Shown one piece after another: positions 7,211-25,348 of a DNA stretch of 36,638 nt; the first letter of the stretch is position 1, and each line of letters opens with the position of its first letter. Position numbers and translations under genes: made by a program. The DNA comes from a virus. The notes under the pieces were generated by a model, which searched no databases, was not told the DNA's origin, and was given only the letters and a program-made list of their open reading frames with translations. The stretch lies in the IMG/VR virus record IMGVR_UViG_3300045988_010186, positions 1 to 36,638 of that record. One strand, written 5' to 3'.

Positions 7211-8484
7211 TTAACTCAAAATGGATTGATATTTTTCTACCGTGCTGTTCTTTCTCCACAGCCGCCGCACCTGACTTGCCACGCTGTCGGGCGCATCATC
7301 GTGCTCCGCGTTCTCGTTGTAATCGCAAATCTGGTCGATAAATTCTTTATCAGTCCCGCTGACGAAATAAACGTTGTTCCATTCAGCTTTCAGATACGAC
7401 GTGATTTTCAAAAACTTATTCATGTTTTCATGATAAGTTACCGCTCGTTCACCACGCTTGCGCAGTTCTTTCGCCAAATATCCTTTATCGCCATTATCTT
7501 CGCAGTAGATTTTACCAGCATTAAAACTTTTCCGCAAGGCCTGTATCTCGTCGAGACAGTCATCCACGTGTTTACGCCACAAGCGCCCGTAAAAATAGTA
7601 ATTGCCATCGCGCTTTGACACGATGGTAAATGCGGTATAATCCTCTCCGCCGTATGCAGCATCGATGTGGCAATCCCCCTGTTCAACCAGCGCGGGGTCA
7701 CAATCAGTGCGCGGGTTGTCAAAGATAACATCCTCCGAGGCAATGTGACGAAGCTCATAGTTTGCCGCAAAGAGTGAAGCGGTCATTTTTTCTCGGATTT
7801 CCGCTATTTCCGCGTCGGTCATCAAACCAGTGGAATAGCAGTCATATTTCTCCGGGTTTGGCATTAGCGAAAATGCATCGGACTGATGCCAAGGCGTGCC
7901 AGTGTTGAATATTCTCCCGCCACGGTTGATGATGTTCCGCAGTTCTTGATAAATCAGCTTCGTTCGGTCGCGTTCAGCCTTTGAAATGCGGTCTTGCACA
8001 TTGACAATATCATCAGTAAAAATCCGGTCAAAGTGTTTGCCGGTTAGAGAACCGCCCATGCCAAGCCCAACAAGCTGAGATGTGCCGCGAATATCTGTTG
8101 GCAGGTTGGTGCTTATCTCGTTTGCCGTTGCCGTTGTCAGTCTCAAATCACAGCCATAAATGCACTGGACAAAATACCGCATCTGCTGGCTTTGTAGGAT
8201 TTTCTTGACCTGTGAAATGACCTCTTTTATATCGTTGTCTGTCTTCCTCATAAACAGCGTTTTGCAGTTTGGAAGCAATACCATAATCAGAGACAGGGCG
8301 ATAGAAACACAAGTTGTCTTGTAGGAACCTAACCACGGTGAGCCTGCAACGTTTTATCCTCTTTTCCTCTAACCATATCAATAATCCAGCCGTTGTGCAA
8401 TTCCGTCAGCCTTGTAAAGCCGACAATATGACCGAATTTATATGGGCTGTTCAAAAGGAAATCAACTGCATCTTTTCTCACCAT
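7211..8484 (-). CDS. terL: Terminase large subunit, interrupted by a -1 frame change at ~8329-8335
   Basis: A 51-codon N-terminal ORF (8484..8329, MVRKDAVDFLLNSPYKFGHIVGFTRLTELHNGWIIDMVRGKEDKTLQAHRG*) has a strong RBS (AGGAGG). The main body, in another frame, is open from ...PWLGSYKTTCVSIALSLIMVLLPN and continues through the 357-aa track ORF. The P-loop-like RG(L)GSYKTT spans the break. Confidence 0.8.
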
Positions 8485-8491
8485 ATTTTAA

Positions 8492-9163
8492 TCACCTCCT
8501 ATTTTTTTCTGACAAAGATTCCTCAATTCTCTTTTTAGCTATGTTAAAATATCTATCATCAAGCTCAATGCCTATGAAGCGGCGGTTAGTATTCACGCAA
8601 GCAACGCCTGTTGAACCGCTACCCATAAATCCATCAAAGACAACTTCATTTTCGCCCGAAGAATTGCAGATAAATGTTGCCAGCAAAGAAACAGGCTTTT
8701 CGGTTGGGTGGTTTTGATTTCTTGTCTTATCGGCAAAAAACACATCGTCCATTCGTTTGATGGTAAAGCACTTTCTTCCTTTGTTTCCATACAAAACAAA
8801 TTCGTGCTTTGGTGCGTAGCTTCCTTTCAAATCGCCGCTCCCGTGGTTGTTCTTTACCCAAACAATAACATTTTTTAACTTAAAATACTTTTCAAAAGTT
8901 TTCTTGAAAACATCAATGTTATGCCACGAACAAAAGCAATAAATCGCCGTGTTGTCTTTCATTATGCGGAAACATTCAGCAAAATATCCGTCAAGCCATT
9001 CAAGAGATTTGTCGCCCTTTAATTTTGCATATACTTCTTTTCTTCTATGGCTTTGAAAGCTCATTCCATACGGCGGGTCGGTCAGCACCAAATCCACCGT
9101 GCCATCGGGAATATTCTTCATCAATTCAAGACAATCACCATGCCATAATTCAATCGGATTCAC
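8492..9163 (-). CDS. DNA methyltransferase, N6-adenine/N4-cytosine class (N6_N4_Mtase, DPPY)
   Basis: Motifs LTDPPYG and C-terminal FDGFMGSGSTGVA (SAM binding). 223 aa. Confidence 0.85.
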   Translation of the reverse strand: MNPIELWHGDCLELMKNIPDGTVDLVLTDPPYGMSFQSHRRKEVYAKLKGDKSLEWLDGYFAECFRIMKDNTAIYCFCSWHNIDVFKKTFEKYFKLKNVIVWVKNNHGSGDLKGSYAPKHEFVLYGNKGRKCFTIKRMDDVFFADKTRNQNHPTEKPVSLLATFICNSSGENEVVFDGFMGSGSTGVACVNTNRRFIGIELDDRYFNIAKKRIEESLSEKNRR

Positions 9164-12311: not shown

Positions 12312-12992
12312 TTATCCCCATTGTTCTGCCATAGCCTTAGCAATTCCGGGGTATGTTTTGCTCCTGGCTTTTGCTGTACGTGGGTCATTCCACCGTAAGA
12401 TTTTTCCGTTTTCATCCGTAGCATAATTCGCAGATGCCCCTACGCTATAACCACCCGGCAGTATTTCTCCATGATTTACAACATCCGTTGGAATGAGCGG
12501 CGGGAGATTTTTAAGCCATAGGCAAGTCGTCTTTCTTGCAGGATGCCCAAACTGATACGGCTGTACGATGCAATCTGGTTTGCGGTAATGCGTTGACATA
12601 TAACCAACCGGATTCTCGACGCAAACACAAGGAATGTCCGCCTCGATAAAAGCCATAAAGAATTCAGCTGCTTCTTTTCTTGCTTTTAATCGTTCAATTG
12701 CTCTGTCTCCATATCGTTCGACGTTGAACCAGCGGTTTCCAGATACGGTAAGGTAGGTGCAGGGCGGATGTGCTATCAGCAAATCCCACTTACCAACCGC
12801 ATGAACCTGCCCGTCCATCGTAGTCACGCTCCCGCCTTTAACGGCTTCGAGAGCGTCACCAAGAATGTGCCATTCCGGGTGCCCACCGGATGGCTTTTGC
12901 ACATCGCAACTGTACGCTTCATGTCCGCGAGCACGAAACGCTTTACAAACTTCCTGCGATTCTTCGCAAGCAATAAGCACACGCATCCTCAC
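12312..12992 (-). CDS. C5-cytosine DNA methyltransferase-like protein
   Basis: Motifs AHPPCTYLTVSG (PC motif IV-like), VENPVG (ENV-like) and a C-terminal RSKTYPGIAKAMAEQW. There is no canonical FxGxG at the N-terminus. Confidence 0.55.
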   Translation of the reverse strand: MRMRVLIACEESQEVCKAFRARGHEAYSCDVQKPSGGHPEWHILGDALEAVKGGSVTTMDGQVHAVGKWDLLIAHPPCTYLTVSGNRWFNVERYGDRAIERLKARKEAAEFFMAFIEADIPCVCVENPVGYMSTHYRKPDCIVQPYQFGHPARKTTCLWLKNLPPLIPTDVVNHGEILPGGYSVGASANYATDENGKILRWNDPRTAKARSKTYPGIAKAMAEQWG

Positions 12993-13432
12993 ACCCCCGC
13001 ATCTTTCGGCTTAAAAATCACGACCATGTTCGGGAACGGCGCGCTGTTTTTGCTGCCGCCGAATTTCAGCCGCCCGCGCACGAACCGTGTCTCGACGTTC
13101 GGCCGCTCATAGATATACGTGTGGAACCATCGCGTGTCCGTCCTCGCTGGCAACAACATGACGATGGTGTTGTTATTCACGTAGTTCTCGTAGCTGGCCT
13201 TTTGCACCCACTTGCCGATCTGCCGACCGTATGGTGGGTTGCACCACACCGTGCCAGGCCAGGGCTGTTTCAGTCCATCCTGCTCTCGCGTATAGTAACA
13301 GGGGCATTTGTGGTTTTGTGCGTCCGCGGCGGCATCCAGCGTAAAGCCGAACTCCGCGTCAAGCATGTCAAAAAAGTCCTGTGGGGTCTCCCACAAATCA
13401 GTCTTGCTGGAAAACAAAACGTCTTTATTCAT
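12989..13432 (-). CDS. DNA N6-adenine methyltransferase (phage Dam family)
   Basis: Motifs DLWETPQDFF and WCNPPYG (NPPY). 147 aa. Confidence 0.8.
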   Translation of the reverse strand: MNKDVLFSSKTDLWETPQDFFDMLDAEFGFTLDAAADAQNHKCPCYYTREQDGLKQPWPGTVWCNPPYGRQIGKWVQKASYENYVNNNTIVMLLPARTDTRWFHTYIYERPNVETRFVRGRLKFGGSKNSAPFPNMVVIFKPKDAGV

Positions 13433-13434
13433 CC

Positions 13435-13707
13435 TTACATCCCCGCTTCCTGCATCGCCTGCTGCATAAACGATAGTTGCTGCCGCAGGTCGTCGATCGT
13501 GCGTTCCTGCCGCGTCATTTCGGCGGAAAACGCCAGTGCCTTGCGCCGCTCGTTGCAGAGCATGGTTTCCGCTTTCTCGCGCTGTTCATTCTCCTGCTCG
13601 GCGTAGTCGCACAGCCTGTTGACAGCGTAGCGTGCTGCCGGTGAGAAATTCAGATTACCACGATCGTGCGCCAGCAGGTCACGCACTTGTTCACAAATTC
13701 TGTTCAT
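13435..13707 (-). CDS. Hypothetical coiled-coil protein
   Basis: 90-aa ORF tightly packed within the operon. Confidence 0.5.
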   Translation of the reverse strand: MNRICEQVRDLLAHDRGNLNFSPAARYAVNRLCDYAEQENEQREKAETMLCNERRKALAFSAEMTRQERTIDDLRQQLSFMQQAMQEAGM

Positions 13708-13712
13708 GCGTC

Positions 13713-14318
13713 TTACTCCTCTCTGCGCTCATAAAACAGCGCATTGTACTGGTCGTATCGGTCTTGGATCGTGTTTGCAACCGGGTAAAAGTTCTCCCAG
13801 AATCCGCAGGGGTCTATCTCCGAACAGCCGCCGCGGTATACACAGTTTGGCACCAACACGTCGCTCAACTCCGGCTCGGTCTCGTGCAACACCGCCTTGA
13901 AATCTTCGGCGTACTGCTGGGTTTCTGGTGATGCCTGATAGCACAGCCGCTTGCGCCAAGTGTCGATCAAATTCTGCGCATTGGCCTCACCCGTGAACGT
14001 GACCGGCGTGTTCTGCGGAAGTTTCCCGCGCGGAACGCCAGTGCGGTCGCTCCTCTGCGTGCGGATGAAGCACTCCCATTTGTGCCGTGACCAGTGTGTG
14101 GCAACCCAGCTCAGAATGTCTCTCCAGCGCCAGCGCACGCGGAGGTCACGGATCGGGCTGTGCTCCGCGATAAGGATATTGCGCTTGAATTGCTCGCTCG
14201 GCTCGTGGCCGAGACTCTCCTTGCCTACGGTAGCACGGCAGTCGTCTACTACCTCGCGCCAGCTTCCTTTGACGCCAAGCAGCTCTGTCTTCGACACTTC
14301 GTTCACCTTCCCTTCCAT
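13713..14318 (-). CDS. Truncated ThyX-like protein (mini-ThyX), paralog 1
   Basis: AEHSPIRDL...ATHWSRHKWECFIRTQRSDR aligns to the ThyX H-x-S/T..E...RHR...SxRY block. NAQNLIDTWRKRLCYQASPETQQYAEDF aligns to the ThyX [25 protein letters not shown] block. Start taken at MEGKV (14318). Confidence 0.65.
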   Translation of the reverse strand: MEGKVNEVSKTELLGVKGSWREVVDDCRATVGKESLGHEPSEQFKRNILIAEHSPIRDLRVRWRWRDILSWVATHWSRHKWECFIRTQRSDRTGVPRGKLPQNTPVTFTGEANAQNLIDTWRKRLCYQASPETQQYAEDFKAVLHETEPELSDVLVPNCVYRGGCSEIDPCGFWENFYPVANTIQDRYDQYNALFYERREE

Positions 14319-14473
14319 TACGCCACCCCCAGTGCCGTGAAGATCACGTGGAACAGCCACCCGGCCAGTGCGATGCCGCCGAGAAAGCTCGCGCAGACGA
14401 TGCCGTCCTCTATGCCCCAGACGATATATTTGCGCACCTTTGCCCGTGCGCGCGGATCTCCGAATACTTTCAT
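14318..14473 (-). CDS. Small membrane protein (51 aa)
   Basis: Not in the track because it is under 60 aa. RBS AAGGAG precedes the ATG at 14473. It has a hydrophobic C-terminal segment (FLGGIALAGWLFHVIFTALGV). The TAATG overlaps the next start. Confidence 0.5.
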   Translation of the reverse strand: MKVFGDPRARAKVRKYIVWGIEDGIVCASFLGGIALAGWLFHVIFTALGVA

Positions 14474-14497
14474 TGTTGTTTCTCCTTACCGGGCGGT

Positions 14498-14671
14498 TTA
14501 GCCGCCAATCGTTTCAAGCAGCTCTTTTGCAAGGCGCTTCATTTCAGCTTTTGCGGTTTTTTGTTCATAAATGGTCTTAAAGCACATATTGCCCTGAATG
14601 TGTGCAATCTCTTTCAGAATATCCATAGCTTCTTCATTTGCCGCGATTTCAAAAATCTGTTTCTGCGTCAT
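14498..14671 (-). CDS. Hypothetical small protein (57 aa)
   Basis: First ORF after the promoter at 14721-14749. RBS AAAGGAA is present (MTQKQIFEIAANEEAMDILKEIAH...). Confidence 0.45.
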   Translation of the reverse strand: MTQKQIFEIAANEEAMDILKEIAHIQGNMCFKTIYEQKTAKAEMKRLAKELLETIGG

Positions 14672-14720
14672 TTGAATTTCCTTTCTGCCTGTTGGCTCTG
14701 TATTTCCATTTGATGATTAT

Positions 14721-14749
14721 AATATACACTATTTTATCGCGCTTGTCAA
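14721..14749 (-). promoter_or_regulatory. Promoter (TTGACA-N17-TATATT), member of a repeated promoter cassette
   Basis: Minus strand reads TTGACA (14749-14744), a 17-nt spacer, then TATATT (14726-14721), followed by ATAATCA. An A/T-rich upstream element is shared with the promoter at 24138-24166. Confidence 0.6.
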
Positions 14750-14778
14750 TACTTTTTTTGATAAAAAGCAAATTTTTT

Positions 14779-15036
14779 TGTAACTAACTTTTTCTCCCAA
14801 ACAATCATAGTTACGCAAAAAACATAGTGTTTTCAATGCTTTGGCGGCTTTTTGGGGTGTAACCAAAACCAAGAAACCACGTTTGTATATTATATATTTC
14901 TAAAATAAAAAATATATCTTTTTTATTTTTATAAAAAGTTAGTTACATAGTTACAAACTACATAAAAAGTAGTAAGAAATATAGTAATATCAATGCTTTG
15001 AGGGGTGTAACTAAGTGTGTAACTAAGTGTAACTAA
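14779..15036. repeat. Iteron cluster flanking an AT-rich stretch; putative replication origin
   Basis: TGTAACTAA occurs at 14779, 15006, 15018 and 15028, inverted at 14939-14947, with the variant TGTAACCAA at 14858. The longer repeat ATAGT..TCAATGCTTTG..GGGGTGTAAC occurs at 14824-14863 and 14981-15011. The core at 14881-14938 is almost pure A/T. The cluster lies directly downstream of VirE. Confidence 0.55.
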
Positions 15037-15058
15037 GTCGGCCAAAATGCCGATTTGG

Positions 15059-16510
15059 TTAAAGCGGCAGCTCGTCCTCGGCCTGACCGGAAACGCGCTT
15101 CCAGTACCTTTGAACGCCATATTCGCCCATTCTTTTCGCGCTCGGCTGTTTTTCCCAGTCAGGAAAAGACTGCATAATTAGACTAATGTCTTGCGATTCC
15201 TTGCGCGTTGGTTTGAGCGGATCGCTGTGAAGGGCTTCGCGCCAAAGCTGGATAATACAAACTTCGTCTTTGTAATCCAGATATTCCTTTACAAGTCCGA
15301 TTCGGTAATCATCCTCGACAGCGCGGTCTTGCGCAGCTCGGATTTGCGAAATGAGCGAACGATTAGCATACGGCGCAAGATTTCCGGAAAAGTATAGATT
15401 CAACGCCTCTGCCCAGCACTGCCTGATGTACGCCTTGATTTCATCCTTATGTTCGAAAAGCTCGTATCCACTCTGATTGACTTTTACCGGGTAAAAACGT
15501 CGGTTTCCGGTTTTGTCGGTCAGAAATTGCTCTTTGTTGGTCGTCCCGATGAAGATGCATTGGCGCGGGTGATCGGTCACGCGCTTATCAAACGGCATCC
15601 GATAACGGTCATTTTGCCGCGTCAGATAGCTTTTTACTGCCTCCTGCTCCTTTACACGGGTCATGGCAAGAAGTTCCGACACTTCGCAAATCCACGCCCC
15701 CTCGACCGCTTCAATGCCGCGCTGACCGTCAAACTCGTTGACCTCGGAAAAATATTCGTCTTCCAGTGCCAGCCATCGAACGAGCGTGCTTTTGCCCTCG
15801 CCCTGTTTTGTGCCGATCAGAACCGGCATATCATCAAATTTGCATCCGGGATTATAAAGCCGGTTAATGCCACCAGCAAAAATCAGGCGGCTAACCTCTC
15901 GCGTGTATGGCGTGTCCTCGCACTTAGTCCATGTATGCAAAAAATCGTAAATGCGGCTCTGGCCGTCCCATCTGATATAGCCAACAATATCGCGCACAGG
16001 GTGATACCGATTCTCGGCCATGACAATACGCAAAGCATCATCCGATTTTTGCACGGAATGAAACCTATACTTTTTCTCGATGTATCGCCGCATTTCGGCA
16101 TCGTCGGCATCCGTCCAGCGCTCCATCTTACCATCAACCAGTTTCTCCGGAGAGTATGTCAATTCGTTGAATTTCAGACCTGCAAATTTCGGGTCGTTTT
16201 CGAGCACCTGTAGGAAATTGTCAACGCTTGAAAGCGGCCTGCCACTAGCATCAAAATCCAAGTTAATTGCAGACCGCTTTTTCGCGTTCTCTCGTGTGTA
16301 GTCAGCCGAAATCTTGTCGAGCGCTTTAGTGTACGCCTTGAAAAGCTGCTCAAATTGCTTTTGGATGCCGAGCTGGTTTGCCTTAATAATCAGCGCCGTT
16401 GACAGCCTGATGCGTTCTTCCTCCGGCTCTTCAGCCAAATCATCCAGCATATCAACCCGCAGTAGGTCAAACGGGTTTGTAATTTTCTCGATTTGCTCCA
16501 GACTAAGCAT
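15059..16510 (-). CDS. VirE-family P-loop NTPase (phage primase/helicase-associated)
   Basis: 483 aa with Walker A GTKQGEGKST and Walker B-like AWICEVSE, and an overall VirE-like layout. Confidence 0.75.
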   Translation of the reverse strand: MLSLEQIEKITNPFDLLRVDMLDDLAEEPEEERIRLSTALIIKANQLGIQKQFEQLFKAYTKALDKISADYTRENAKKRSAINLDFDASGRPLSSVDNFLQVLENDPKFAGLKFNELTYSPEKLVDGKMERWTDADDAEMRRYIEKKYRFHSVQKSDDALRIVMAENRYHPVRDIVGYIRWDGQSRIYDFLHTWTKCEDTPYTREVSRLIFAGGINRLYNPGCKFDDMPVLIGTKQGEGKSTLVRWLALEDEYFSEVNEFDGQRGIEAVEGAWICEVSELLAMTRVKEQEAVKSYLTRQNDRYRMPFDKRVTDHPRQCIFIGTTNKEQFLTDKTGNRRFYPVKVNQSGYELFEHKDEIKAYIRQCWAEALNLYFSGNLAPYANRSLISQIRAAQDRAVEDDYRIGLVKEYLDYKDEVCIIQLWREALHSDPLKPTRKESQDISLIMQSFPDWEKQPSAKRMGEYGVQRYWKRVSGQAEDELPL

Positions 16511-17072
16511 TTTTTCCTATCTCCCTTTCTGCCAAGTATAGCTCGTATTCTGCCAGGTCTTTCTTTTTTAGCGCGTTCGCGTACTCATCTGTAATTGCAT
16601 CCACCTCTCTTTTTGGTTTCTCGGACGTAATTACATCGTCTATTTGTTTCCACGCATCGAATTTAGCCCAAAATTCGCGTTCTAAGCGTTTTTTATTTTC
16701 TTCCCGCGTCTTTATGCTATTTTCACGTTCAGCCCTTATACGGTCAAATTTATGCTTCTGACGCATTGTCATTTTTTCGCCGATTGGATAGCCAAGCGAA
16801 AAATCCGCATTAAGTTTCTCGATCGCGTCCTTAAATCCGAGCCTAAAATAGTCACGAACGAATGATATAACGTCCCCGGACGCGCCGCAAGTGAAGCAGT
16901 GATAGCCACCAGAGCCTGGATACACGTGCATCGACGGGTGTCTTGTGTCCGCGTGAAACGGACAGTACATCTTCCTTGATCGGTTGATGGTGAAACCATA
17001 ATACCGCAGCACGTCCTCTGTCGCAAGGCTGGATTTTATTTCCTCCGCTATGGTTGATAAATGACTATACAT
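16503..17072 (-). CDS. CHC2 zinc-finger protein (DnaG-type zinc-binding domain only)
   Basis: Motif CPFHADTRHPSMHVY...YHCFTCGASGDVISF. The C-terminal half is a charged coiled coil. No TOPRIM motifs were seen. Confidence 0.75.
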   Translation of the reverse strand: MYSHLSTIAEEIKSSLATEDVLRYYGFTINRSRKMYCPFHADTRHPSMHVYPGSGGYHCFTCGASGDVISFVRDYFRLGFKDAIEKLNADFSLGYPIGEKMTMRQKHKFDRIRAERENSIKTREENKKRLEREFWAKFDAWKQIDDVITSEKPKREVDAITDEYANALKKKDLAEYELYLAEREIGKNA

Positions 17073-17096
17073 TTTTAGTTACCTCGTTCGATGATT

Positions 17097-17152
17097 ATAA
17101 AAAAATATGGGAATACCCGCAGGCCGAAAGGTGAAAGCCTACGGGTACTCCC
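17097..17152 (-). terminator. Strong minus-strand intrinsic terminator in the leader of the replication genes
   Basis: Minus-strand RNA GGGAGUACCCGUAGGCU-loop-GGCCUGCGGGUAUUCCC forms a 17-bp stem (including G-U pairs), followed by AUAUUUUUUU. On the plus strand the G-U positions become A-C mismatches. Confidence 0.65.
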
Positions 17153-17228
17153 AAGCAGAGAAACCAACAAAAAGGAGATAAAAAAAAGAAGGGAACCACT
17201 CGTCCGCGTCGAACTCATGGACAACATT

Positions 17229-17257
17229 ATAATACTACATCGGCCGGATTACGTCAA
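17229..17257 (-). promoter_or_regulatory. Promoter (TTGACG-N17-TATTAT)
   Basis: Minus strand reads TTGACG (17257-17252), a 17-nt spacer, then TATTAT (17234-17229), followed by AAT. The geometry matches the other three promoter cassettes. Confidence 0.5.
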
Positions 17258-17266
17258 GTAGTTTTT

Positions 17267-17788
17267 TTATTTTTTTTTACATCCCCCGTTGAATTCGTGG
17301 CACGCACCGCCCTGATAGGCGCAAGATGGCACAAGTAGTCCCGTAAACTCTGGGCACACTTTCAGCACCTCACGACACATCTTTTTCACAACTTCGCGCG
17401 TTTCTGGGCTCGCCATATTGCAAAGTCGTTTGTTTGCGATGATTTGCAGCTCCTCAGCGTTGAGATACCAGATCATATCAACCGGCGCGTCCTGCGGGGC
17501 TTTCGTGCGGTCATAGTAGCTCTGCCGGTCGTTGCGCTGGCTGCGCACAAACGGTTGCGCGTGAACGTGCCTGCACAAATGCACACTTACCCAATACGGC
17601 AAATCGGTGATGCGGAAAGCAAACTGCAGCGTCCTGATCGGGCTGTGCCGCGCCTCCAAAATTTTGCTTTTCCATGCCTGCGATGGCGGCTGAACAGGGT
17701 GCTTGCCAACGGTAACAAGTGTACATTCTTTGCAAAACATCCAGTCGTCGTCTGACGGATATTTAATCAGCTCAACGTTCATCGGCAA
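17267..17788 (-). CDS. Truncated ThyX-like protein (mini-ThyX), paralog 2
   Basis: ARHSPIRTLQFAF...VSVHLCRHVHAQPFVRSQRNDR and NAEELQIIANKRLCNMASPETREVVKKM align to the same blocks as paralog 1 and to ThyX motifs. Confidence 0.6.
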   Translation of the reverse strand: MPMNVELIKYPSDDDWMFCKECTLVTVGKHPVQPPSQAWKSKILEARHSPIRTLQFAFRITDLPYWVSVHLCRHVHAQPFVRSQRNDRQSYYDRTKAPQDAPVDMIWYLNAEELQIIANKRLCNMASPETREVVKKMCREVLKVCPEFTGLLVPSCAYQGGACHEFNGGCKKK

Positions 17789-18012
17789 AACCTCTCTTCG
17801 AACGAAGGCTTTACGACATACCCAGTCAGGTCGTCAAGGCTGACGTGCAGCGCGTCTGCGATTGCAATCAGCATGTTTAGCCGTGGCGATACGAGCCCGG
17901 CCTGATACTTTGACAGCGTTGCACGGCTAATTCCGGTCACGTGCTGTAGGCGGTTAAGCGAATATCCTCTTCGCTCCCGAATCTCCCGGAAATTTTCAGT
18001 GAACGTTCCCAT
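17779..18012 (-). CDS. XRE-family helix-turn-helix regulator (77 aa)
   Basis: ATG at 18012 is preceded by GGAGGGG. The sequence NFREIRERRGYSLNRLQHVTGISRATLSKYQAG is a typical HTH_3. Confidence 0.75.
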   Translation of the reverse strand: MGTFTENFREIRERRGYSLNRLQHVTGISRATLSKYQAGLVSPRLNMLIAIADALHVSLDDLTGYVVKPSFEERFCR

Positions 18013-18508
18013 TTTTCCCCTCCAGCTTGGAAATAATCTCACGCATTCTGGGCGCGGAAACGCCCTTCTCGACGATTTTTCCGTTATTATAGATAGTATA
18101 CCCACCGTTCTCAAAAATAGCAGATACGCAAGTTTTTGCGGCTGTGGTGGTTGTTGCGGTCTGCGCCTTTTTACTTTGCATCCGCGCGGGAATGTCCATC
18201 ATCTCCGGCCGCTTCTCCTCAGTCCACGCAAGGCCGCAAAGATTCCAAATAGCGGCGATCAGATGATCTTCATCGGTTTGACCATCCATATACTTAACCA
18301 GATGCCGCATTGCGCTGTCGGCGAAACTGTGGGCAGGGATGCCCTGCTCCCAGTTCCTTTCCGCATATTTTTTTGCTCCTGCTTCGTAGTGCTTCGCAAG
18401 CCGGAGAAGAACGCACATCGGCAGCAGGTCAAATCTTCCTTTACCTTCGTGAATGTCTCTGACCGCCCCCGTACTAAATGCCGTTCTATTTCCGCTATCT
18501 TTAATCAC
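17996..18508 (-). CDS. MazZ/MazG-like dNTP pyrophosphohydrolase domain protein (dATP/dGTP diphosphohydrolase N-terminal-like)
   Basis: FSTGAVRDIHEGKGRFDLLP...LAKHYEAGAKKYAERNWEQGIP...DEDHLIAAIWNL matches my memory of this phage family. A T/A-rich linker and a ~50-aa C-terminal extension follow. Confidence 0.55.
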   Translation of the reverse strand: MIKDSGNRTAFSTGAVRDIHEGKGRFDLLPMCVLLRLAKHYEAGAKKYAERNWEQGIPAHSFADSAMRHLVKYMDGQTDEDHLIAAIWNLCGLAWTEEKRPEMMDIPARMQSKKAQTATTTTAAKTCVSAIFENGGYTIYNNGKIVEKGVSAPRMREIISKLEGKNGNVH

Positions 18509-18950
18509 TTTTTACCTCCACTTCACCGAAAGCCTGCTCGAACGTCAGGCCGGTAACGGCAAGAATTTTTTTGATTTCGTCTATTTTAAGCGCACTTTTT
18601 CCTGCAAATTTTCCTCGCCATCTTTCAGTCGAGCCGGGGTTATAAACATATCCCATCATTTGCAGAAGCACGGTTGTGTTTACTCCGCTCCTATTCATCC
18701 AATCGCGCAACCCGACATAAATGCACGTTTTTTCGCCACAAAAGCGGTAATGTTTCGCATTTACTCCGGCGCAATATTGCGATACGCGCTGCTTGGTAAC
18801 GCCGAGTTCATCTGCGATTTGCTGAAATGACATACCGTTTTCGCGCATTTTAATCGCAATTTCTCTGTTTCTCGTGTATCTATAGTTCCCTTTTCTCTTT
18901 TCTTTTTTTACCTCCTCGCATCCCGTAGGTGTGCAAGATTCAAAATTCAC
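18501..18950 (-). CDS. HTH DNA-binding protein
   Basis: MSFQQIADELGVTKQRVSQY is a sigma-70 region-4 / LuxR-like HTH. Confidence 0.5.
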   Translation of the reverse strand: MNFESCTPTGCEEVKKEKRKGNYRYTRNREIAIKMRENGMSFQQIADELGVTKQRVSQYCAGVNAKHYRFCGEKTCIYVGLRDWMNRSGVNTTVLLQMMGYVYNPGSTERWRGKFAGKSALKIDEIKKILAVTGLTFEQAFGEVEVKSD

Positions 18951-19449
18951 TTTGCAATCGCTCCTTCGCTTCCCGATATAAAATATCGTGTATTAGTTTT
19001 GGTGTTGTATCTGGCTGGCAAAAAACAATATGTGCATCATATCTTGCCATCCACGCGATCAAAGACGCGATCAGGGCTTGCGGCAGCATCTTCGACCGAT
19101 ATCGTCCGGCGTATGCTTTTTCCCAGCTCGCGTTTTCGATCAGCAGATACACCCGCTCTTCTGATTGTTTCAGCCGCTCGAATTCGTTCACGAACCTCTG
19201 CCGGTTTTGGCAAAAATTCGAGCATATCTCGCTCAACGACATTTTCCGTTCAATGCAGCACGGTACGCGCCATTTTTGCTCGCCCGGAAGCACAAACATG
19301 GCAGAATAGTCACCGCTATCCAGCTTCGCGCGTGTCCACGGCACACCGAAAGCCGCCCATCTTTTGACGGCCTCCGGCGTTTCGTGTTCTCTGCTATCGA
19401 CGATTATGGTCATGGTCGATAGCGCTTTTTGCATTTCAGGTGGGTTCAT
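18940..19449 (-). CDS. ERCC4-type nuclease
   Basis: Motifs IVDSREH, SGDY and IERKMSLSE (the ERK motif). Confidence 0.7.
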   Translation of the reverse strand: MNPPEMQKALSTMTIIVDSREHETPEAVKRWAAFGVPWTRAKLDSGDYSAMFVLPGEQKWRVPCCIERKMSLSEICSNFCQNRQRFVNEFERLKQSEERVYLLIENASWEKAYAGRYRSKMLPQALIASLIAWMARYDAHIVFCQPDTTPKLIHDILYREAKERLQSEF

Positions 19450-19936
19450 TCAATGTCCCGTCGAGTTTATGGATCTCCAGAAACAGCGGGTAAAGCTCTG
19501 TCAACGTCTGATACTTGCGCTCGAAAGAATGCAGTTCTTTCATAGCCGTGTCGAGCAAGGCAGTTCTCTTTTCTGCACATGTAAGAATTTTTTGTGTGCT
19601 TTCATATCCGACCTGTTTGTCAACAGTGAAAAACGCCCTGATAGGTGTCGCATCCGGCTCTTTTTCAACCTCGTTACCGTTTTCGTCAATATCCTCGTTT
19701 TTAATCACAAGGGCGCGGATGATGTACCTCGCCTGCGATACCCGGTATTTTTCTGCCGCGATGTCGTTGTCCCACTCAAACTCGTGATGGAGCGGAGCGT
19801 CATCTGCGCGGCTCGCATCCACAAGAGCCTCGGCGGTCAAACCTCCTTTCTTTTCAAGTTCTTCGCACACCGCTCCCGCTGTCTGTGCGTCCGCTTTGAT
19901 GTGATACTTTGCTGTTTGCTTCCATTCGTAAACCAT
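19436..19936 (-). CDS. Hypothetical protein
   Basis: Start trimmed to the ATG at 19936, preceded by AAAGGAGG (MVYEWKQTAKYHIK...). Confidence 0.6.
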   Translation of the reverse strand: MVYEWKQTAKYHIKADAQTAGAVCEELEKKGGLTAEALVDASRADDAPLHHEFEWDNDIAAEKYRVSQARYIIRALVIKNEDIDENGNEVEKEPDATPIRAFFTVDKQVGYESTQKILTCAEKRTALLDTAMKELHSFERKYQTLTELYPLFLEIHKLDGTLNEPT

Positions 19937-19966
19937 TTTGTTTACCTCCTTTAATTTTTTTTGGGA

Positions 19967-20250
19967 TTGCCTGCCACGACGAGCCACGCCACGCCGCGCC
20001 CAACCAGACCTTGCCTGCCTTGCCGCACCGCGCCAAGCCTTGCCTCGCCTGCCATACCGTGCCGTACCACGCCATACCTAGCCTCGCCTGACCTTACCGC
20101 GCCTTGCCTGCCACACCAATCCTTACCGCGCCGTACCTCACCGCGCCATGCCATACCTAACCTTGCCAAACCAAACCATACCTCACCACGCCTGCCATGC
20201 CAAACCCAGCCCGGCCTTGCCATACCGCGCCTCGCCTCACCAAGCCTGCC
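19967..20250 (-). repeat. Degenerate pentanucleotide array: 58 consecutive GGY(N)N units on the minus strand (NNRCC on the plus strand)
   Basis: A gap-free hand parse gives 52 five-mers plus 6 four-mers (TGCC), totalling 284 nt. 57 of 58 units end in CC and 57 of 58 have a purine before CC. See findings. Confidence 0.9.
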
Positions 20251-20269
20251 ATGATCTATTGATCGTTAC

Positions 20270-20917
20270 TCAAGCATCAACATGGAACATACCATACTGC
20301 CCATCTCTTTCTGGACGCCATTCGCCAATCCCGCAAACATATCCGCCAGCGTTAATCATGTTTACGATGTTTTCAAGGCTGACGCTTCCGTTCGTGTTGT
20401 AGCTGATGCACAAATCAGCGTACCAGTTTCTGAACTCTCCGCGATAACGGATGTCAGCCGTGCCCATGCCGACCTTGACCATATCCTCGCGCATGATTGG
20501 CGTATCACTGTGAATCTCGATCAGGCCATTCTCGTCGCTATCGATGAAGAACATACCGCGATTTTCCATCTTGTTTTTGCTCCAACCAAGACGATATGCT
20601 GCGCTGATTGCCGCCTGTTTGATAGCAGTAACCGGGAAGCCGAACCGCGCGCCATTCTCGACGGCTTTCTGGAATCCTTCTTCGGTCGTTTCTTCCGGCA
20701 TCGGGGTAATCCAGTAAAGCGACCGGATGAAATCGTCAACCGGGTCTTTCGCTTCCTTCTTCTTGCCCTTCGCAAGCCCCATCTGTGCCTCAAGCATCAT
20801 GCGTTTTGCTTTCTCGCTCCATGCGTGGATGATGAGCGGCGTGTCACCGACAATGCGGACGTTCACCTTCTGGATTTTAATCGGCCGAATCTCGATAACC
20901 TCTGTTTTTGCTGCCAT
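20270..20917 (-). CDS. Hypothetical protein of the recombination module (215 aa)
   Basis: Long ORF with RBS AAAGGAGA. I do not recognise the family. Confidence 0.6.
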   Translation of the reverse strand: MAAKTEVIEIRPIKIQKVNVRIVGDTPLIIHAWSEKAKRMMLEAQMGLAKGKKKEAKDPVDDFIRSLYWITPMPEETTEEGFQKAVENGARFGFPVTAIKQAAISAAYRLGWSKNKMENRGMFFIDSDENGLIEIHSDTPIMREDMVKVGMGTADIRYRGEFRNWYADLCISYNTNGSVSLENIVNMINAGGYVCGIGEWRPERDGQYGMFHVDA

Positions 20918-21002
20918 TTTTATTATCTCCTTTTCACTTTATTTCGTCCCGCCTATTCTTTCCCGGGCGGGTGCGGGAGTATGTTATGGTGTTTTTCCTC
21001 GC

Positions 21003-21566
21003 TTAAAACGGCAGGTCTCCGTCATCCTCTGCCGGGAGTTCTGTGAACGTCGTGGATGCCTGCACATTCTTTTTCAGCGGACGATCTTTCATCGGCTTGT
21101 AATTGCCATCGCGGACGGCCTGAGCGTCAAGAAACATACCGCATTCGGTTGTCCAGCCTGTATTACCGTCCCATTCCCACTCGCGGTTACGGAACAGCAC
21201 GCCCACGGTCTTGCCTTTCAGACCAGCCTCGTTCCAGTCCCAGTGGTAGCCGGGGTTGCTCTGCTCGATTGCCCACATCGCATTACCGAACTGCTTTTTC
21301 TGGCTGACAACCCACTGATTGCTTTCATCAGGGACAGTCAGGCGATAATTGCCCTTCCACTTTTTGTCCTCGTTCTGGTTGCTCTTCCACTCTTCCGCGA
21401 AATGGTTTTTGTAATCGCCCTCGGCGATGTCGAACGAAATCACAAGCTGTTCGCCCCACGAGTAAGACTTTACCTCAGCGCCCATGATTTTAGCGACATA
21501 GCCGCCAGCGGGAAGCGGCTCACTCATGCGCATGGCCTCTGCCTTGTAACCGTCAAATGCTTTCAT
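21003..21566 (-). CDS. DUF669-like putative single-stranded DNA-binding protein
   Basis: 187 aa, Trp-rich, lying next to the AAA_24 gene. The C-terminal acidic tip EDDGDLPF resembles the SSB tail. Confidence 0.6.
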   Translation of the reverse strand: MKAFDGYKAEAMRMSEPLPAGGYVAKIMGAEVKSYSWGEQLVISFDIAEGDYKNHFAEEWKSNQNEDKKWKGNYRLTVPDESNQWVVSQKKQFGNAMWAIEQSNPGYHWDWNEAGLKGKTVGVLFRNREWEWDGNTGWTTECGMFLDAQAVRDGNYKPMKDRPLKKNVQASTTFTELPAEDDGDLPF

Positions 21567-21798
21567 TTTTGCTTACCTCCGTATTATCAATTATTTTAAG
21601 CGGACATTTTCCGCCTACATACTTTTGCGGATATGCTGTCAGCTCTTTGTTAAGCTGGCACATCCTCTCATTGCTGGACAAATACGGGCACTGATGACAG
21701 CTAATATCTGCCGTGCCGCGCTTGTCAACCGGAAAAAACACGTCCACTGTGGCAGTCGCGTGGACATAAGACGTGATGCCGGATTCGAAATCAGGCAT
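21553..21798 (-). CDS. Hypothetical Cys-rich protein
   Basis: 81-aa ORF overlapping both neighbours. Confidence 0.45.
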   Translation of the reverse strand: MPDFESGITSYVHATATVDVFFPVDKRGTADISCHQCPYLSSNERMCQLNKELTAYPQKYVGGKCPLKIIDNTEVSKNESI

Positions 21799-22414
21799 CC
21801 TCGCTGCCTCCCATCTGCCAATAATTTCTTATTTGTTCGTCCACATACCGAAGGTCATTATCAATAAGAGGCTTGTCGAAAAGCCCCATCGGGGTCTTAA
21901 CTGTGTCCTGCCCGTTGTTTTGGGTGCTGAAAAGGTATCGCCCGTCCTGCACCACGGTTTTTAGCACGATCGTAAACTTGCCTTCCAGCGTGACATAATT
22001 GTCAAGCATCTTGCCGATGGTCTTAAAATGCTCCGAGCCATCGTCTTTCTGATCGCTGTGACCGATGAAATAAACGATCTTATCATCCGGGAGCTGACCG
22101 CACGCGTCAATCAGGTTGTTGAAGTCGCACGCAAAATCGGTGTACTTCTGGTAGCCAGTGACTTTCGCGTTACGCATGAACGCGTTAACCATCAGATAAG
22201 TCGCATCATCAATCACGATTGACTTCTGCGGTGCGGCCTTAATCGCTCGCGTGATAGCGGCGTAATTGTCGCTTTTGAACGTTTTCAAGTCGTTCCTGAA
22301 CGGAAGCGGCTTACCGGACACATTGACGATTGCCACGTCATCTCGCCCGAAATTTCTTAGGCTTGTGGACTTTCCTGTCCCGCTCTGGCCGTAAACCATG
22401 CAAAGTACTGCCAT
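21791..22414 (-). CDS. AAA_24 / Sak4-like RecA-fold ATPase
   Basis: Walker A VYGQSGTGKST at the N-terminus and Walker B IVIDD. The ~207-aa size is typical. Confidence 0.75.
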   Translation of the reverse strand: MAVLCMVYGQSGTGKSTSLRNFGRDDVAIVNVSGKPLPFRNDLKTFKSDNYAAITRAIKAAPQKSIVIDDATYLMVNAFMRNAKVTGYQKYTDFACDFNNLIDACGQLPDDKIVYFIGHSDQKDDGSEHFKTIGKMLDNYVTLEGKFTIVLKTVVQDGRYLFSTQNNGQDTVKTPMGLFDKPLIDNDLRYVDEQIRNYWQMGGSEDA

Positions 22415-22418
22415 ACAA

Positions 22419-22895
22419 TCACCCTTTCTTTTTCTCGGCGCACCATTCGCCGAATCTCTCTTTTTCGCAGATGTCGTCGATGTTGAAAATAAAATCTTCC
22501 AGAAGTTTCATCTGGTAATACGCACCGCTATCGCCTTGTTCATACCGGAGCACGAAATCATAGTATTCTTTCAGCATAACCAGCTCCAACGGCGTTCCAA
22601 TTCTCTCCGGCACGGACGATTTCCAGCACTGATCGAACATATATCTCGCAAATAGACCTTCGTCAAGCATATACGCAAGCGCGGTTTGCGGTGTAAGCAT
22701 ATCCGCCAGGCAGTCGAAGCAGTAACCGCCGAAAAGCTCGTCATCAAGAAACGCGCTTCCGCATCTGCTACAATGCATCGCCTCGCCGTATGCCTCCTTG
22801 CAAACCGGGCATCCGTCGTGCCATCCGTCATCCTCTTTCCATCTTGCCTGCTCACCATCGTCGAAAACGTGGCCGCAGTTAAGGCACTTGTACAT
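22419..22895 (-). CDS. Zinc-ribbon protein, function unknown
   Basis: CLNCGH...CPVC and CSRCGS...CFDC pairs are present. Confidence 0.5.
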   Translation of the reverse strand: MYKCLNCGHVFDDGEQARWKEDDGWHDGCPVCKEAYGEAMHCSRCGSAFLDDELFGGYCFDCLADMLTPQTALAYMLDEGLFARYMFDQCWKSSVPERIGTPLELVMLKEYYDFVLRYEQGDSGAYYQMKLLEDFIFNIDDICEKERFGEWCAEKKKG

Positions 22896-23112
22896 TCTTT
22901 TTACCTCCTTTTTTTGAAAGTGAAATGAACTCTTCTGCTGTCATTTCCGTTTCAAGCAACCCAAGATACAGGTCGATGCCTCCGGCCCTGATTTCTTTGA
23001 TGCACCTTTCTTCTTCCCTTCCGCCGCTTTGAATGTCAAAAGCTGCTGCGCGAAGCACATATAGCGCAAGGTCTTTGACGCCGGATGCGTTGTCTTTCGC
23101 TTTTCTTGGCAA
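22879..23112 (-). CDS. Hypothetical protein, first gene of the early operon (TTG start)
   Basis: AAGGAG lies 8 nt upstream of the TTG at 23112. Confidence 0.45.
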   Translation of the reverse strand: MPRKAKDNASGVKDLALYVLRAAAFDIQSGGREEERCIKEIRAGGIDLYLGLLETEMTAEEFISLSKKGGKKNVQVP

Positions 23113-23137
23113 AATATCATCTCCTTTTCATGATTAT

Positions 23138-23166
23138 AGTATAAACTATTTTTGTTAAATTGTCAA
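23138..23166 (-). promoter_or_regulatory. Early promoter (TTGACA-N17-TATACT)
   Basis: Minus strand reads TTGACA (23166-23161), a 17-nt spacer, then TATACT (23143-23138), followed by ATAATCA. Confidence 0.6.
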
Positions 23167-23189
23167 TACATTTCTCGAAAAAATATACA

Positions 23190-23210
23190 AAATTCAGACG
23201 AAATTCAGAC
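23190..23210. repeat. Tandem direct repeat AAATTCAGAC(g)AAATTCAGAC in the divergent control region; possible operator
   Basis: Two exact 10-mers with an 11-bp period lie between the minus-strand early promoter and the plus-strand gene at 23273. Confidence 0.4.
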
Positions 23211-23272
23211 CTTTGCTTGCTTTCATTTTCCACCCACATGATATACCATGGGAGTAGAAACGAGGTGCTATC

Positions 23273-23671
23273 ATGGCATATTACAATCCGTATATGAATC
23301 CGATGCAATATAACAATCCGTATATTGATAGGCTCAACGCGATGTCGGCGCAGGGGCAGACGAACACCCAGCCGAGCCAGATCATCCGCGTGAACGGCCT
23401 TCCAGGCGCGCAAGCCTATCAGATGGGCGCGAACGCTTCTGTCGCGCTGTTTGACGCGAACGAAGATTATTTTTACATCAAAAGCACTGACGGAGCGGGG
23501 TTCGCATCAATCAGACGTTTCAAATTTTCTCCATGCGATGATATGCAGTCGGCCGCTCCTGCCGAAGATTACGTGACGCGCAAAGAATTCGACGAATTGA
23601 AAGGAATGGTGCTAAATGGCAAGCAGCATCTTCGGGGAGAACCCGATGCAGCAGATGCAGGCGGGAAGTAA
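23273..23671 (+). CDS. Hypothetical protein with N/Y/P/Q-rich N-terminus
   Basis: RBS GAGGTG is present. 132 aa. Confidence 0.55.
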   Translation: MAYYNPYMNPMQYNNPYIDRLNAMSAQGQTNTQPSQIIRVNGLPGAQAYQMGANASVALFDANEDYFYIKSTDGAGFASIRRFKFSPCDDMQSAAPAEDYVTRKEFDELKGMVLNGKQHLRGEPDAADAGGK

Positions 23672-23834
23672 CCCCATGCAGATGATCGCGCAATTCCGGC
23701 AGTTTGCGAAGTCCATGACGCCGCAAAAAGCCCAGCAGCAGATCGAGAAAATGCTCACATCCGGCCAAATGTCGCAAACGCAGTTTGAAAGCCTGAAACA
23801 GCAGGCACAGTCTTTTATGCAACTTCTCAAATAA
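23616..23834 (+). CDS. Hypothetical Q-rich small protein; start uncertain (the ATG at 23646 with GGGGAG is an alternative)
   Basis: Plus-strand ORF ending at the bidirectional terminator. Confidence 0.45.
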   Translation: MASSIFGENPMQQMQAGSNPMQMIAQFRQFAKSMTPQKAQQQIEKMLTSGQMSQTQFESLKQQAQSFMQLLK

Positions 23835-23866
23835 AAAAGGGCGGCCGTCTCGCCGCCCTGATATAA
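23833..23866. terminator. Bidirectional intrinsic terminator
   Basis: The hairpin GGGCGGC-cgtctc-GCCGCCC is flanked by AAAAAA upstream and a T-rich run downstream. Confidence 0.7.
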
Positions 23867-23874
23867 AATTTATT

Positions 23875-24084
23875 TTAGATGTTCTCTCCGTTGGAGATGC
23901 GCATCATCACATCTTCGGTGATGTTCGTATCTTTTTTCGAATTGTAAAAAATCGAACTCATCGAACCATCGCTGAAAAATGCTGCCTTTTCGTATCTCTT
24001 AATAAGTGCTTTCGCGCTGTCGCTCGTGCTCTTAAAGATGATGTCTCCGTCTTCACTGGTAACAGTCATGTAATACTTTTTCAT
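23875..24084 (-). CDS. Hypothetical protein (69 aa), monocistronic unit
   Basis: It has its own promoter (24138-24166), an RBS (AAAGGAGA) and the terminator at 23833-23866. Confidence 0.55.
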   Translation of the reverse strand: MKKYYMTVTSEDGDIIFKSTSDSAKALIKRYEKAAFFSDGSMSSIFYNSKKDTNITEDVMMRISNGENI

Positions 24085-24137
24085 TTTTAATATCTCCTTT
24101 GTTTAATGTTTTTTGTTGTTTCCCTCTCTGTGATTAT

Positions 24138-24166
24138 ATAATAGCACATATATGTGTAAATGTCAA
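24138..24166 (-). promoter_or_regulatory. Promoter (TTGACA-N17-TATTAT)
   Basis: Minus strand reads TTGACA (24166-24161), a 17-nt spacer, then TATTAT (24143-24138), followed by ATAATCA. The upstream TTTTTATCAAAAAG element is shared with 14750-14766. Confidence 0.6.
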
Positions 24167-24234
24167 CACTTTTTGATAAAAAGGTAAAGTTTTTTTGAAA
24201 AATAATCAGGGGTGCACACCGGTTATTAAATAAA

Positions 24235-24837
24235 TTGAAAGGAATGATTATTCTGGATAATTACAGTCTTTCTGACCTCCGCGCTGCCGTTGATGGTGGC
24301 GGCGAAGGGTGGAACAACGGAGGCGCTTGGTGGATCATCATCCTGTTCCTGTTCGTCTTTATGGGCGGCGGCTTCTGGGGCAACCGTCAGGGCGAATTCG
24401 GGCAGTATGCAACTGCCGCCAGCCAGCAGGAGATCCTGTTCGGCCAGCAGTTCGGCCAGCTCAACGATCGCCTGAACAACGTCGGCAACGGCATCTGCGA
24501 CAGCACGTTCGCGCTTAACAACGCCATCACATCGGAAGGCCGCAATCTGTCCGCACAGCTCGCGCAGTGCTGCTGCGACAACCGTCTTGCCACGGCGAAC
24601 CTGTCCGCTCAGATGAACCAGAACGCCTGCGACATCACCACGGCGATCCATGCCGAGGGTGAAGCTACCCGCGCGCTGATTCAGACTAACGAAATCCAGG
24701 CTCTTCGTGACAAGGTTTCCAGCCTTGAGATGGACTCTCGCTTCTGCGGCGTTGTCCGCTACCCGATGAGCTATTCTTATAGCGCTGGTAATTCTCCGTT
24801 CTGCGGTTGCGGCTGCGGCTGCGGGAATAACATCTAA
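24235..24837 (+). CDS. Membrane-anchored Q/N/C-rich protein with a C-terminal (CG)n tail; start uncertain (TTG 24235 or ATG 24244)
   Basis: The TM segment is AWWIIILFLFVFMGGGFWG. Internal CCC and other Cys motifs occur, and the C-terminus reads FCGCGCGCGNNI. Confidence 0.55.
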   Translation: MKGMIILDNYSLSDLRAAVDGGGEGWNNGGAWWIIILFLFVFMGGGFWGNRQGEFGQYATAASQQEILFGQQFGQLNDRLNNVGNGICDSTFALNNAITSEGRNLSAQLAQCCCDNRLATANLSAQMNQNACDITTAIHAEGEATRALIQTNEIQALRDKVSSLEMDSRFCGVVRYPMSYSYSAGNSPFCGCGCGCGNNI

Positions 24838-24889
24838 ACCACGTTGCCGGTATCGGCAACATGGTGACGCCCTTTTAGGCGAGGTTATT

Positions 24890-24916
24890 GGGGCGGCAAT
24901 AGCTGCCCCATTTTTC
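24890..24916 (+). terminator. Plus-strand intrinsic terminator/attenuator inside the cassette
   Basis: GGGGCGGC-aata-GCTGCCCC forms an 8-bp stem and is followed by ATTTTT. Confidence 0.5.
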
Positions 24917-24938
24917 GTATTATGAAAGGATTGATTAT

Positions 24939-25340
24939 ATGAGTAAATCTGCTATCTACACAACCAACACCAGCGCACCGGCAGTTGCTGTCGGCGGCAT
25001 CATCCCGGTTGGTAACACCGCCAGGCGTTATGGATGCAACATCAAGCAGGATGGTAATGCCATCACGCTTTGCGGCAGCGGATACTATCTCGTAAACGTC
25101 TCCGCGACGGTCACACCGGCAGCGGCCGGAACTGTGTCTGTCACCGCGCAGAAAGACGGCGTTGCAATCATCGGCGCAACCGGCTCGGAAACTGTTGCCG
25201 CTGCCGCGACAGCCGTCAACATTGGCCTGACTGCCATCGTTCGCAACGCTTGCGGATGCGAAAGCAGCATCCTGTCGTTCGTCCTCGGCGGTGCGGCATC
25301 GGTTATCGATAACCTCGCGGTCACGGTCGTGAAACTGTGA
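24939..25340 (+). CDS. Beta-rich protein resembling BclA C-terminal (C1q/TNF-like) domains
   Basis: [36 protein letters not shown]...NLAVTVVKL follows the pattern I associate with BclA_C-like proteins of Firmicutes. This is from memory only. Confidence 0.4.
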
Positions 25341-25348
25341 GGCGCGTC

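Follow-up and report, generated by a model that had tools for sequence, protein, structure and literature searches.

What does a flavin-dependent thymidylate synthase (ThyX) do once its central region has been deleted and its signature motif altered? ThyX is a long-studied antibacterial target that transfers a methylene group via its flavin, with no enzyme nucleophile, and the question arises from a short gene in IMG/VR virus record IMGVR_UViG_3300045988_010186, whose 36,638 nt we refer to as the window. A sequence-only reading of this gene, hereafter copy 1, had aligned two blocks of its product to ThyX, noted the shortened spacer between them and the changes of RHR to RHK and of SxRY to TQRS, and proposed either a hypermodification step or the loss of catalysis. 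Our analysis tips modestly towards a different answer, namely that copy 1 encodes a compact ThyX form that binds metal and has kept its role in supplying thymidylate (dTMP). We call the compact ThyX (Thy1) subfamily to which it belongs mini-ThyX, a name of our own; our literature searches (ThyX-like proteins in phages, crAss-like phages, iron-sulfur proteins, paralogs) returned no account of such a short, cysteine-rich type, and we consider it a new form of ThyX.

Fold and active site of mini-ThyX

Both of the first checks that the sequence-only reading had suggested, a PF02511 search and a structure prediction, pointed to ThyX. The Pfam Thy1 profile (PF02511) matched copy 1 above its gathering score, over part of its length (26.3 against 24.8 bits, E 7.7e-6), the match being limited to residues 97-149, that is, profile positions 138-190 in the last third of the profile. 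The second copy in the window (copy 2) scored 44.1 bits with the same gathering score, and only profile positions ~138-191 were matched by either copy. A single-sequence phmmer search of PDB with copy 1 gave zero matches; a profile of 57 family members matched ThyX chains only, and did so in the same two blocks as those originally proposed (copy 1 residues ~12-74 against ThyX 22-85, and 89-163 against ThyX 154-229). AlphaFold2 modelled copy 1 with a predicted local distance difference test score (pLDDT) of 92.2 and a predicted template modelling (TM) score of 0.88, and copy 2 with a pLDDT of 89.8. Foldseek comparison of these models to PDB listed 50 matches for copy 1, all of them ThyX (E ~1e-7, TM ~0.56), and every match listed for copy 2 was likewise ThyX (TM 0.67). 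Among viral models, the best match was a 166-residue 'thymidylate synthase complementing protein' of an uncultured siphovirus, itself a family member. In PHROGs, copy 1 weakly matched the thymidylate synthase family phrog_85 (E 0.004), and the search with copy 2 gave no thymidylate synthase match. Judged from the models, copy 1 has the ThyX fold.

As references we used the Thermotoga maritima and Mycobacterium tuberculosis ThyX sequences, validated as identical to PDB chains. The central deletion described by the sequence-only reading holds against them: 71 residues lie between Y91 and N163 in the T. maritima enzyme and 22 between S90 and N113 in copy 1, a net loss of ~49 residues that corresponds roughly to T. 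maritima 92-141, a peripheral helical region.

We then scored conservation in 156 sequences aligned to the family hidden Markov model, namely 150 representatives together with both window copies and four phage proteins. By coincidence, residue numbers in copy 1 and in T. maritima ThyX are almost the same. Of the canonical motif G-H-x-(S/T)-P-x-E-H, copy 1 keeps His53, whereas Arg57 and a variable residue stand in place of Glu58/His59. Among ungapped representatives, H53 occurs in 146/146 and R57 in 143/146. The changes to RHK and TQRS are read directly in the copy 1 sequence, and the RHR-x7-S-x-R-Y signature fails throughout the family. R78 (133/151, 88%) and H79 (149/151) are kept and the third arginine is variable (G, H, K or E at position 80); S/T87 and R89 are both present in 153/153 sequences, the Tyr91 slot at position 90 is filled by T, N, D, S or E and never by an aromatic residue, and an invariant D-R pair follows (D91 in 148/153). 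Further downstream, R97 is found in 147/152 representatives, N113 in 146/153, R124 in 153/153 and C126 in 152/153.

The roles of several of these residues have been described for T. maritima ThyX (PMC11940539): the reduced flavin is stabilised by R78, H53 makes stacking contacts with the pterin of the folate or with the isoalloxazine, S88 is hydrogen-bonded to the flavin, and Y91 belongs to a flexible active-site loop of residues 86-97. We equate T87-Q88-R89-S90 of copy 1 with S88-G-R90-Y91 of this enzyme, which would mean that Ser88 and Arg90 are retained, because the paralog copy 2 reads exactly RH-x8-S-x-R and the β-strand predicted after RH coincides with the canonical one. Alignment by hhalign to the single T. 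maritima sequence or to a three-sequence canonical profile (74-77% probability) placed the loop differently and its register there is unreliable; pLDDT also drops to ~80 at this loop in the copy 1 model. The equivalents of residues that bind and polarise deoxyuridine monophosphate (dUMP), R78, S/T87, R89, R97 and R124, vary little or not at all, with the 87-89 register inferred and at odds with hhalign. At least 95% of the 156 representatives carry H53, H79, R89, R97, N113 and R124. The mini-ThyX family therefore appears to keep the cofactor and substrate core around a rebuilt and shortened active-site loop.

The ratios of nonsynonymous to synonymous substitution (dN/dS) against close relatives, 0.12-0.24 for copy 1 and 0.04-0.05 for copy 2, show that both copies are under purifying selection. 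Because the active-site residues are near-invariant and the dN/dS values low, the loss of catalysis that had been proposed is unlikely. A protein of ThyX fold without catalysis could serve as a nucleotide- or flavin-binding regulator, or as a dominant-negative or decoy subunit acting against host ThyX or a defence system. The absence of Tyr91, Arg80, Glu58/His59 and a whole subdomain would fit such a role, as would the tolerance of a redundant second copy by this phage. We nonetheless hold it to be very improbable, given the full ligand-binding Arg/His set that is nearly invariant across thousands of clusters, the purifying selection, a PADLOC search without match, and, as described below, the retention of mini-ThyX on bacterial chromosomes and in the slot of a genuine ThyX.

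The most distinctive feature of the family, four invariant cysteines, had gone unremarked in the sequence-only reading. C126 is joined by C159 (141/142 ungapped representatives), C165 (142/142) and C171 (139/139) in a C-x32-C-x5-C-x5-C arrangement devoid of CxxC zinc knuckles, and the set recurs in the crAss-like, Thomasclavelia and Clostridium phage versions as well as in chromosomal versions of Planctomycetes-Verrucomicrobia-Chlamydiae (PVC) bacteria. This Cys4 set is a probable zinc or iron-sulfur (Fe-S) site. Copy 1 and its P1-type relatives also bear a C-terminal extension, of which residues 184-200 are modelled as a helix.

Genomic setting, distribution and function

The setting of mini-ThyX in other phages bears directly on its function. 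In the crAss-like phage cr116_1 (Asinivirinae), the gene order is DNA polymerase I, early protein, RNA ligase, HicA, four small open reading frames (ORFs), mini-ThyX and gp052. IAS virus, also of the Asinivirinae, has the same order, and the slot before its gp052 homolog holds a 290-residue ThyX with an S-T-R-Y motif (Thy1, 91 bits). Since mini-ThyX stands in the slot of a full-length ThyX, this in-place replacement argues, by analogy, for an equivalent function. In bajarodcaudo virus 1, mini-ThyX is the only annotated thymidylate synthase; a thioredoxin-family gene adjoins it and DUF1599, DNA polymerase, dUTPase, NrdD and uracil-DNA glycosylase genes lie in its neighbourhood. Thomasclavelia phage TR-TP1 encodes it near NrdG and a dUTPase-like gene. 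Neither the window nor 1.45 Mb of related loci gave a tblastn match to Escherichia coli ThyA or T. maritima ThyX.

The gene immediately downstream of the thymidylate-synthase slot, gp052 (~200 residues; 7527-8153 in the cr116_1 locus L084, 4001-4600 in the IAS virus locus L247), has no Pfam match; homologs occur in Lak megaphages and among phages of Cellulophaga and Tenacibaculum. Its product is a possible nucleotide-metabolism partner.

Copy 1 is no oddity of one phage and belongs to a very large family of gut phages and some anaerobic bacteria. Homologous clusters at 90% identity numbered 3327 for copy 1, 4284 for copy 2 and 5694 for a bacterial member, and a profile search of 1.84 billion representatives yielded 1891 clusters at 50% identity (E<=1e-3). 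Databases already label many members 'ThyX' via the partial Pfam match, and in one representative mini-ThyX is joined to a guanylate-kinase-like domain. We also scanned species-representative genomes with family-specific patterns; the best 80 loci all come from strictly anaerobic lineages, a picture that may be biased by the patterns and by the restriction to these 80. In 27 Kiritimatiellae/Lentisphaerae loci, mini-ThyX shares a common non-phage synteny, with LepA or GroES upstream, followed by (EF-P), Mrp/NUBPL, a 513-residue protein and ExbB, which points to a housekeeping chromosomal gene in these gut bacteria. The Mrp/NUBPL gene, encoding an Fe-S carrier ATPase, lies within ~1 kb or immediately downstream in 26/27 of them. 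An example locus is L216 (5992-8091), the 26 others being found in L183-L230. Some of these PVC members are named 'thymidylate synthase ThyX' by NCBI.

Against this background, the hypermodification step put forward by the sequence-only reading finds no support in the tests made here. More broadly, a ThyX-fold enzyme with changed chemistry or substrate could contribute to phage DNA modification through a product other than dTMP, for example 5-hydroxymethyl-dUMP, methylated dCMP or UMP, or a base modified on DNA. There is a precedent for a neofunctionalised ThyX paralog in PolB, a C5-methylase of UMP and dUMP in polyoxin biosynthesis (PMC5954106), and such a shift would accord with the loss of Tyr91, the proposed general acid, with the loop remodelled around the new D-R pair, with the new Cys4 site, and with the location of copy 1 amid three or four DNA methyltransferase genes, where it replaced a C5-methyltransferase cassette. 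We consider this reading rather unlikely, though worth keeping in view. The residues that bind and polarise dUMP are retained, mini-ThyX holds the slot of a full-length SxRY ThyX in sister crAss-like phages, it is the sole thymidylate synthase candidate beside dUTPase and NrdD in large phages, and it is a conserved chromosomal gene with housekeeping synteny in PVC bacteria. In addition, the window ORFs scanned with Pfam and PHROGs, some small ORFs lying outside the scan, comprised methyltransferase, replication, structural and lysis genes, with no recognised thymidine-hypermodification gene (dUMP hydroxymethylase for 5-hydroxymethyldeoxyuridine, kinase or transferase) among them.

In the mechanism that we favour, mini-ThyX would form an oligomer like that of ThyX, with dUMP, flavin and methylene-tetrahydrofolate bound in shared active sites, and would methylate dUMP to dTMP, so that more thymidylate is available while the phage DNA replicates. 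Zinc or an Fe-S cluster would occupy the Cys4 site, which would either prop up the truncated fold or act as an electron entry point. In a sub-case of this reading, wired for anaerobic life, a Cys4 [4Fe-4S] cluster would replace the NAD(P)H-dependent reductive half-reaction and relay to the flavin, or straight to the intermediate, electrons supplied by ferredoxin, flavodoxin or thioredoxin. We give this sub-case a low probability. The invariant cysteines with their spacing, the anaerobic lineages of the best 80 loci, the proximity of the Mrp/NUBPL gene and the thioredoxin-family gene of bajarodcaudo virus 1 are all in its favour. However, the identity of the metal and the convergence of the four thiols are putative, structural zinc is a frequent occupant of Cys4 sites, ribonucleotide reductases are the usual partners of thioredoxin and NrdH-like proteins, the adjacency of Mrp or thioredoxin is possibly coincidental, and the anaerobes-only picture carries the bias already mentioned. 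It is equally doubtful, although conceivable, that mini-ThyX forms a distinct metal-cluster class of thymidylate synthase, on which gut Kiritimatiellae/Lentisphaerae and thousands of gut phages, some crAss-like phages included, would depend as their only enzyme for forming dTMP; it would draw electrons through a Cys4 [4Fe-4S] site from ferredoxin, flavodoxin or thioredoxin rather than from NAD(P)H, and work without the 'essential' Tyr91 and the helical subdomain.

Several observations weigh against dTMP synthesis by mini-ThyX. Both copies score far below the cutoff (87.9) of the NCBIfam thyX equivalog TIGR02170 (23.4 bits for copy 1, 37.4 for copy 2), the PVC version has no Pfam match at E<=0.001, and the literature searched holds no assay of any member of the subfamily. 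Temperate Clostridia phages carry mini-ThyX amid DNA methyltransferase and recombination genes, not nucleotide metabolism, and the replacement of a DNA methyltransferase by copy 1 would fit a role in DNA modification just as well. The flavin contacts of ThyX include Arg80, Asn85, Glu86, Glu58/His59, Arg165 and His178, none of which is conserved in mini-ThyX, so that its flavin binding is putative. Tyr91 and Ser88 have been termed strictly conserved in ThyX, and the Y91F substitution makes flavin oxidation by the T. maritima enzyme ~1000-fold slower (PMC11940539), yet the tyrosine is absent from the whole mini-ThyX family. Its loss is real and may go with an altered chemistry. Tyr91 is not universal in canonical ThyX, though: the solved ThyX 3fnn/3ge9, close to the M. 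tuberculosis enzyme, reads SQRF.

The two copies and the rest of the window

The second copy implied by the sequence-only reading does exist (Table 1). It reads HSPIR, RH-x8-SQR-x-DR, KRLC and C-x6-C-x6-C, and both copies carry every family-invariant residue. Their treatment as a designed pair did not stand. No second mini-ThyX turned up within at most ±10 kb of the gene in 80 copy-1 and 80 copy-2 viral loci (0/160), and we discarded the idea of a heteromer of the two paralogs on this count and on that of the cassette swap described next. The closest relative of the window, IMGVR_UViG_3300045988_020474 (L088), carries copy 2 and is 89-95% identical over window positions 12984-13649 and most of 14316-29325 by blastn, with no match between; for 12984-13649 and 14316-19448 the identity is ~90-95%. 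In the place of copy 1 it has a 558-residue C5-cytosine methyltransferase gene (L088 13416-15092, Pfam DNA_methylase), and the block of Dam, a 90-residue ORF and copy 1 shows 88-90% identity to further phages in which copy 1 stands alone. This arrangement argues that copy 1 is a swapped-in cassette that, to judge from the alignments, displaced the C5-methyltransferase gene in a lineage already equipped with copy 2. The two copies look like a by-product of mosaic recombination.

The same comparison supports the gene coordinates of the sequence-only reading. The ORF list contains a longer version of copy 1 beginning at GTG 14360, whose additional N-terminal peptide is AVPRDLHGTGGG. We place the true start at ATG 14318 instead, because the homology to L088 ends at window position 14316, approximately at the gene start; AVPRDLHGTGGG also precedes an entirely different gene in L088 and is therefore an upstream leader. 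The ATG overlaps the stop codon of an upstream ORF (TAATG) and is preceded by the purine-rich stretch GGGGGTGG.

The window represents a small siphovirus-type genome with terminase, portal, tape measure and endolysin genes, a Sak4/VapE/DnaG-type replication module and several DNA methyltransferases; megablast of its 12-36 kb portion against GenBank phages gave no match. Three DNA methyltransferase genes, all on the minus strand, lie at 8492-9163, 12312-12992 and 12989-13432, and the types represented are phrog_67, a short phrog_757 type with a PPC motif, and Dam; the C5-methyltransferase gene of L088 is a fourth. Directly upstream of copy 2, a 170-residue protein (17996-18508, minus strand) matches Pfam dGTP_diPhyd_N, the N-terminal domain of MazZ/DatZ-type dATP/dGTP diphosphohydrolases, with 77 bits; no PurZ was seen among the window ORFs scanned. 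The DUF1599 gene of bajarodcaudo virus 1 is likewise a neighbour of mini-ThyX. The terminase large-subunit ORF (7211-8284, minus strand, 357 residues) matches positions 333-709 of 760 of its PHROG profile, the C-terminal half only, and just upstream of it are a stretch of low GC content (0.41) and the methyltransferase gene at 8492-9163. The terminase gene in 7211-9163 (minus strand) may be in two parts or lack its N-terminal portion. At 20021-20168, between replication-module genes, there are degenerate tandem repeats (periods of 39, 20 and 15) beneath a probably spurious Arg/Gly/Trp-rich ORF (19951-20223); this region may contain iterons or an origin.

Table 1. Location of the two mini-ThyX genes, of copy 1 motifs and of adjoining features in the window.
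Feature	Position	Strand	Basis or remark
mini-ThyX copy 1 (P1-type)	13713..14318	-	open 201-residue ORF plus stop codon
H53-S-P-I-R57	14148..14162	-	compared with canonical H53-E-T-P-F-E58-H59; HMMER alignment to 6j61 and 1kq4
R78-H79-K80 ... T87-Q88-R89-S90-D91-R92	14043..14087	-	altered RHR-x7-S-x-R-Y signature, shortened active-site loop
Arg97, aligned with T. maritima Arg147 (dUMP phosphate ligand)	14028..14030	-	HMMER, 'eidRekapq' against 'EVARIVLPL'
N113-A-Q-N-L-I-D-T-W-R-K-R124-L-C126	13941..13982	-	aligned with ThyX N163...R174, then the first invariant Cys; Pfam and HMMER
C159-x5-C165-x5-C171	13806..13844	-	with C126, putative Cys4 metal site
P1-type-specific C-terminal extension, F173-E201	13716..13802	-	conserved R-Y-D-x-Y-N; alignment; absent from copy 2
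51-residue hydrophobic ORF, upstream of copy 1	14318..14473	-	kept in L088
mini-ThyX copy 2 (P2-type), 171 residues	17267..17782	-	BLASTP to copy 1, 40% identity, E 5e-30
swapped cassette	13650..14315	.	C5-cytosine methyltransferase gene here in L088; blastn

Comparison with known thymidylate synthases

Mini-ThyX is of interest chiefly because Tyr91 is missing, because the Cys4 site is invariant and because a bacterial lineage seems to use the protein for housekeeping. A natural minimal ThyX that does without Tyr91, the third arginine of RHR and a whole subdomain, that has a probable new metal site and that is nonetheless conserved in thousands of gut phages and on the chromosomes of a bacterial lineage would reveal what the enzyme cannot dispense with, and it may reveal an anaerobe-specific delivery of reducing equivalents. 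Because part of the family, the PVC version, escapes Pfam entirely and would be labelled hypothetical by annotation from Pfam alone, thymidylate synthesis is probably under-annotated in gut metagenomes and crAss-like phages.

The ThyX of IAS virus (gp051) keeps S-T-R-Y and the central region, has extra insertions, lacks the Cys4 set and shows no significant similarity to the mini-ThyX profile (2.1 bits). Its addition to the canonical alignment was rejected, as it misaligned. PolB is reportedly a full-length ThyX with canonical motifs, encoded in an antibiotic gene cluster. By description, mini-ThyX differs from it in being truncated, cysteine-rich and found in phages and on anaerobe chromosomes; what the two have in common is a ThyX-family protein present as an extra copy with a possibly shifted substrate (PMC5954106).

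With canonical ThyX (PF02511; T. maritima TM0449, 1O26 and 8REO; M. tuberculosis 3GWC), mini-ThyX shares the same fold by Foldseek and the phage niche beside dUTPase, ribonucleotide reductase and DNA polymerase. It keeps the equivalents of His53, Arg78, His79, Arg147, Asn163 and Arg174 and, by motif spacing, those of Ser88 and Arg90, its S/T-Q-R matching the S-Q-R of the M. tuberculosis SQRY. In contrast, RHR has become RH followed by G, H, K or E; Tyr91 has given way to S, T, N, D or E and then the invariant D-R; Arg165 is replaced by Gln or Glu, and His178 is variable. Mini-ThyX proteins span 170-200 residues, compared with 220-250 in canonical ThyX, and have gained the four invariant cysteines, a set missing from the canonical enzymes, together with the C-terminal helix in the P1-type.

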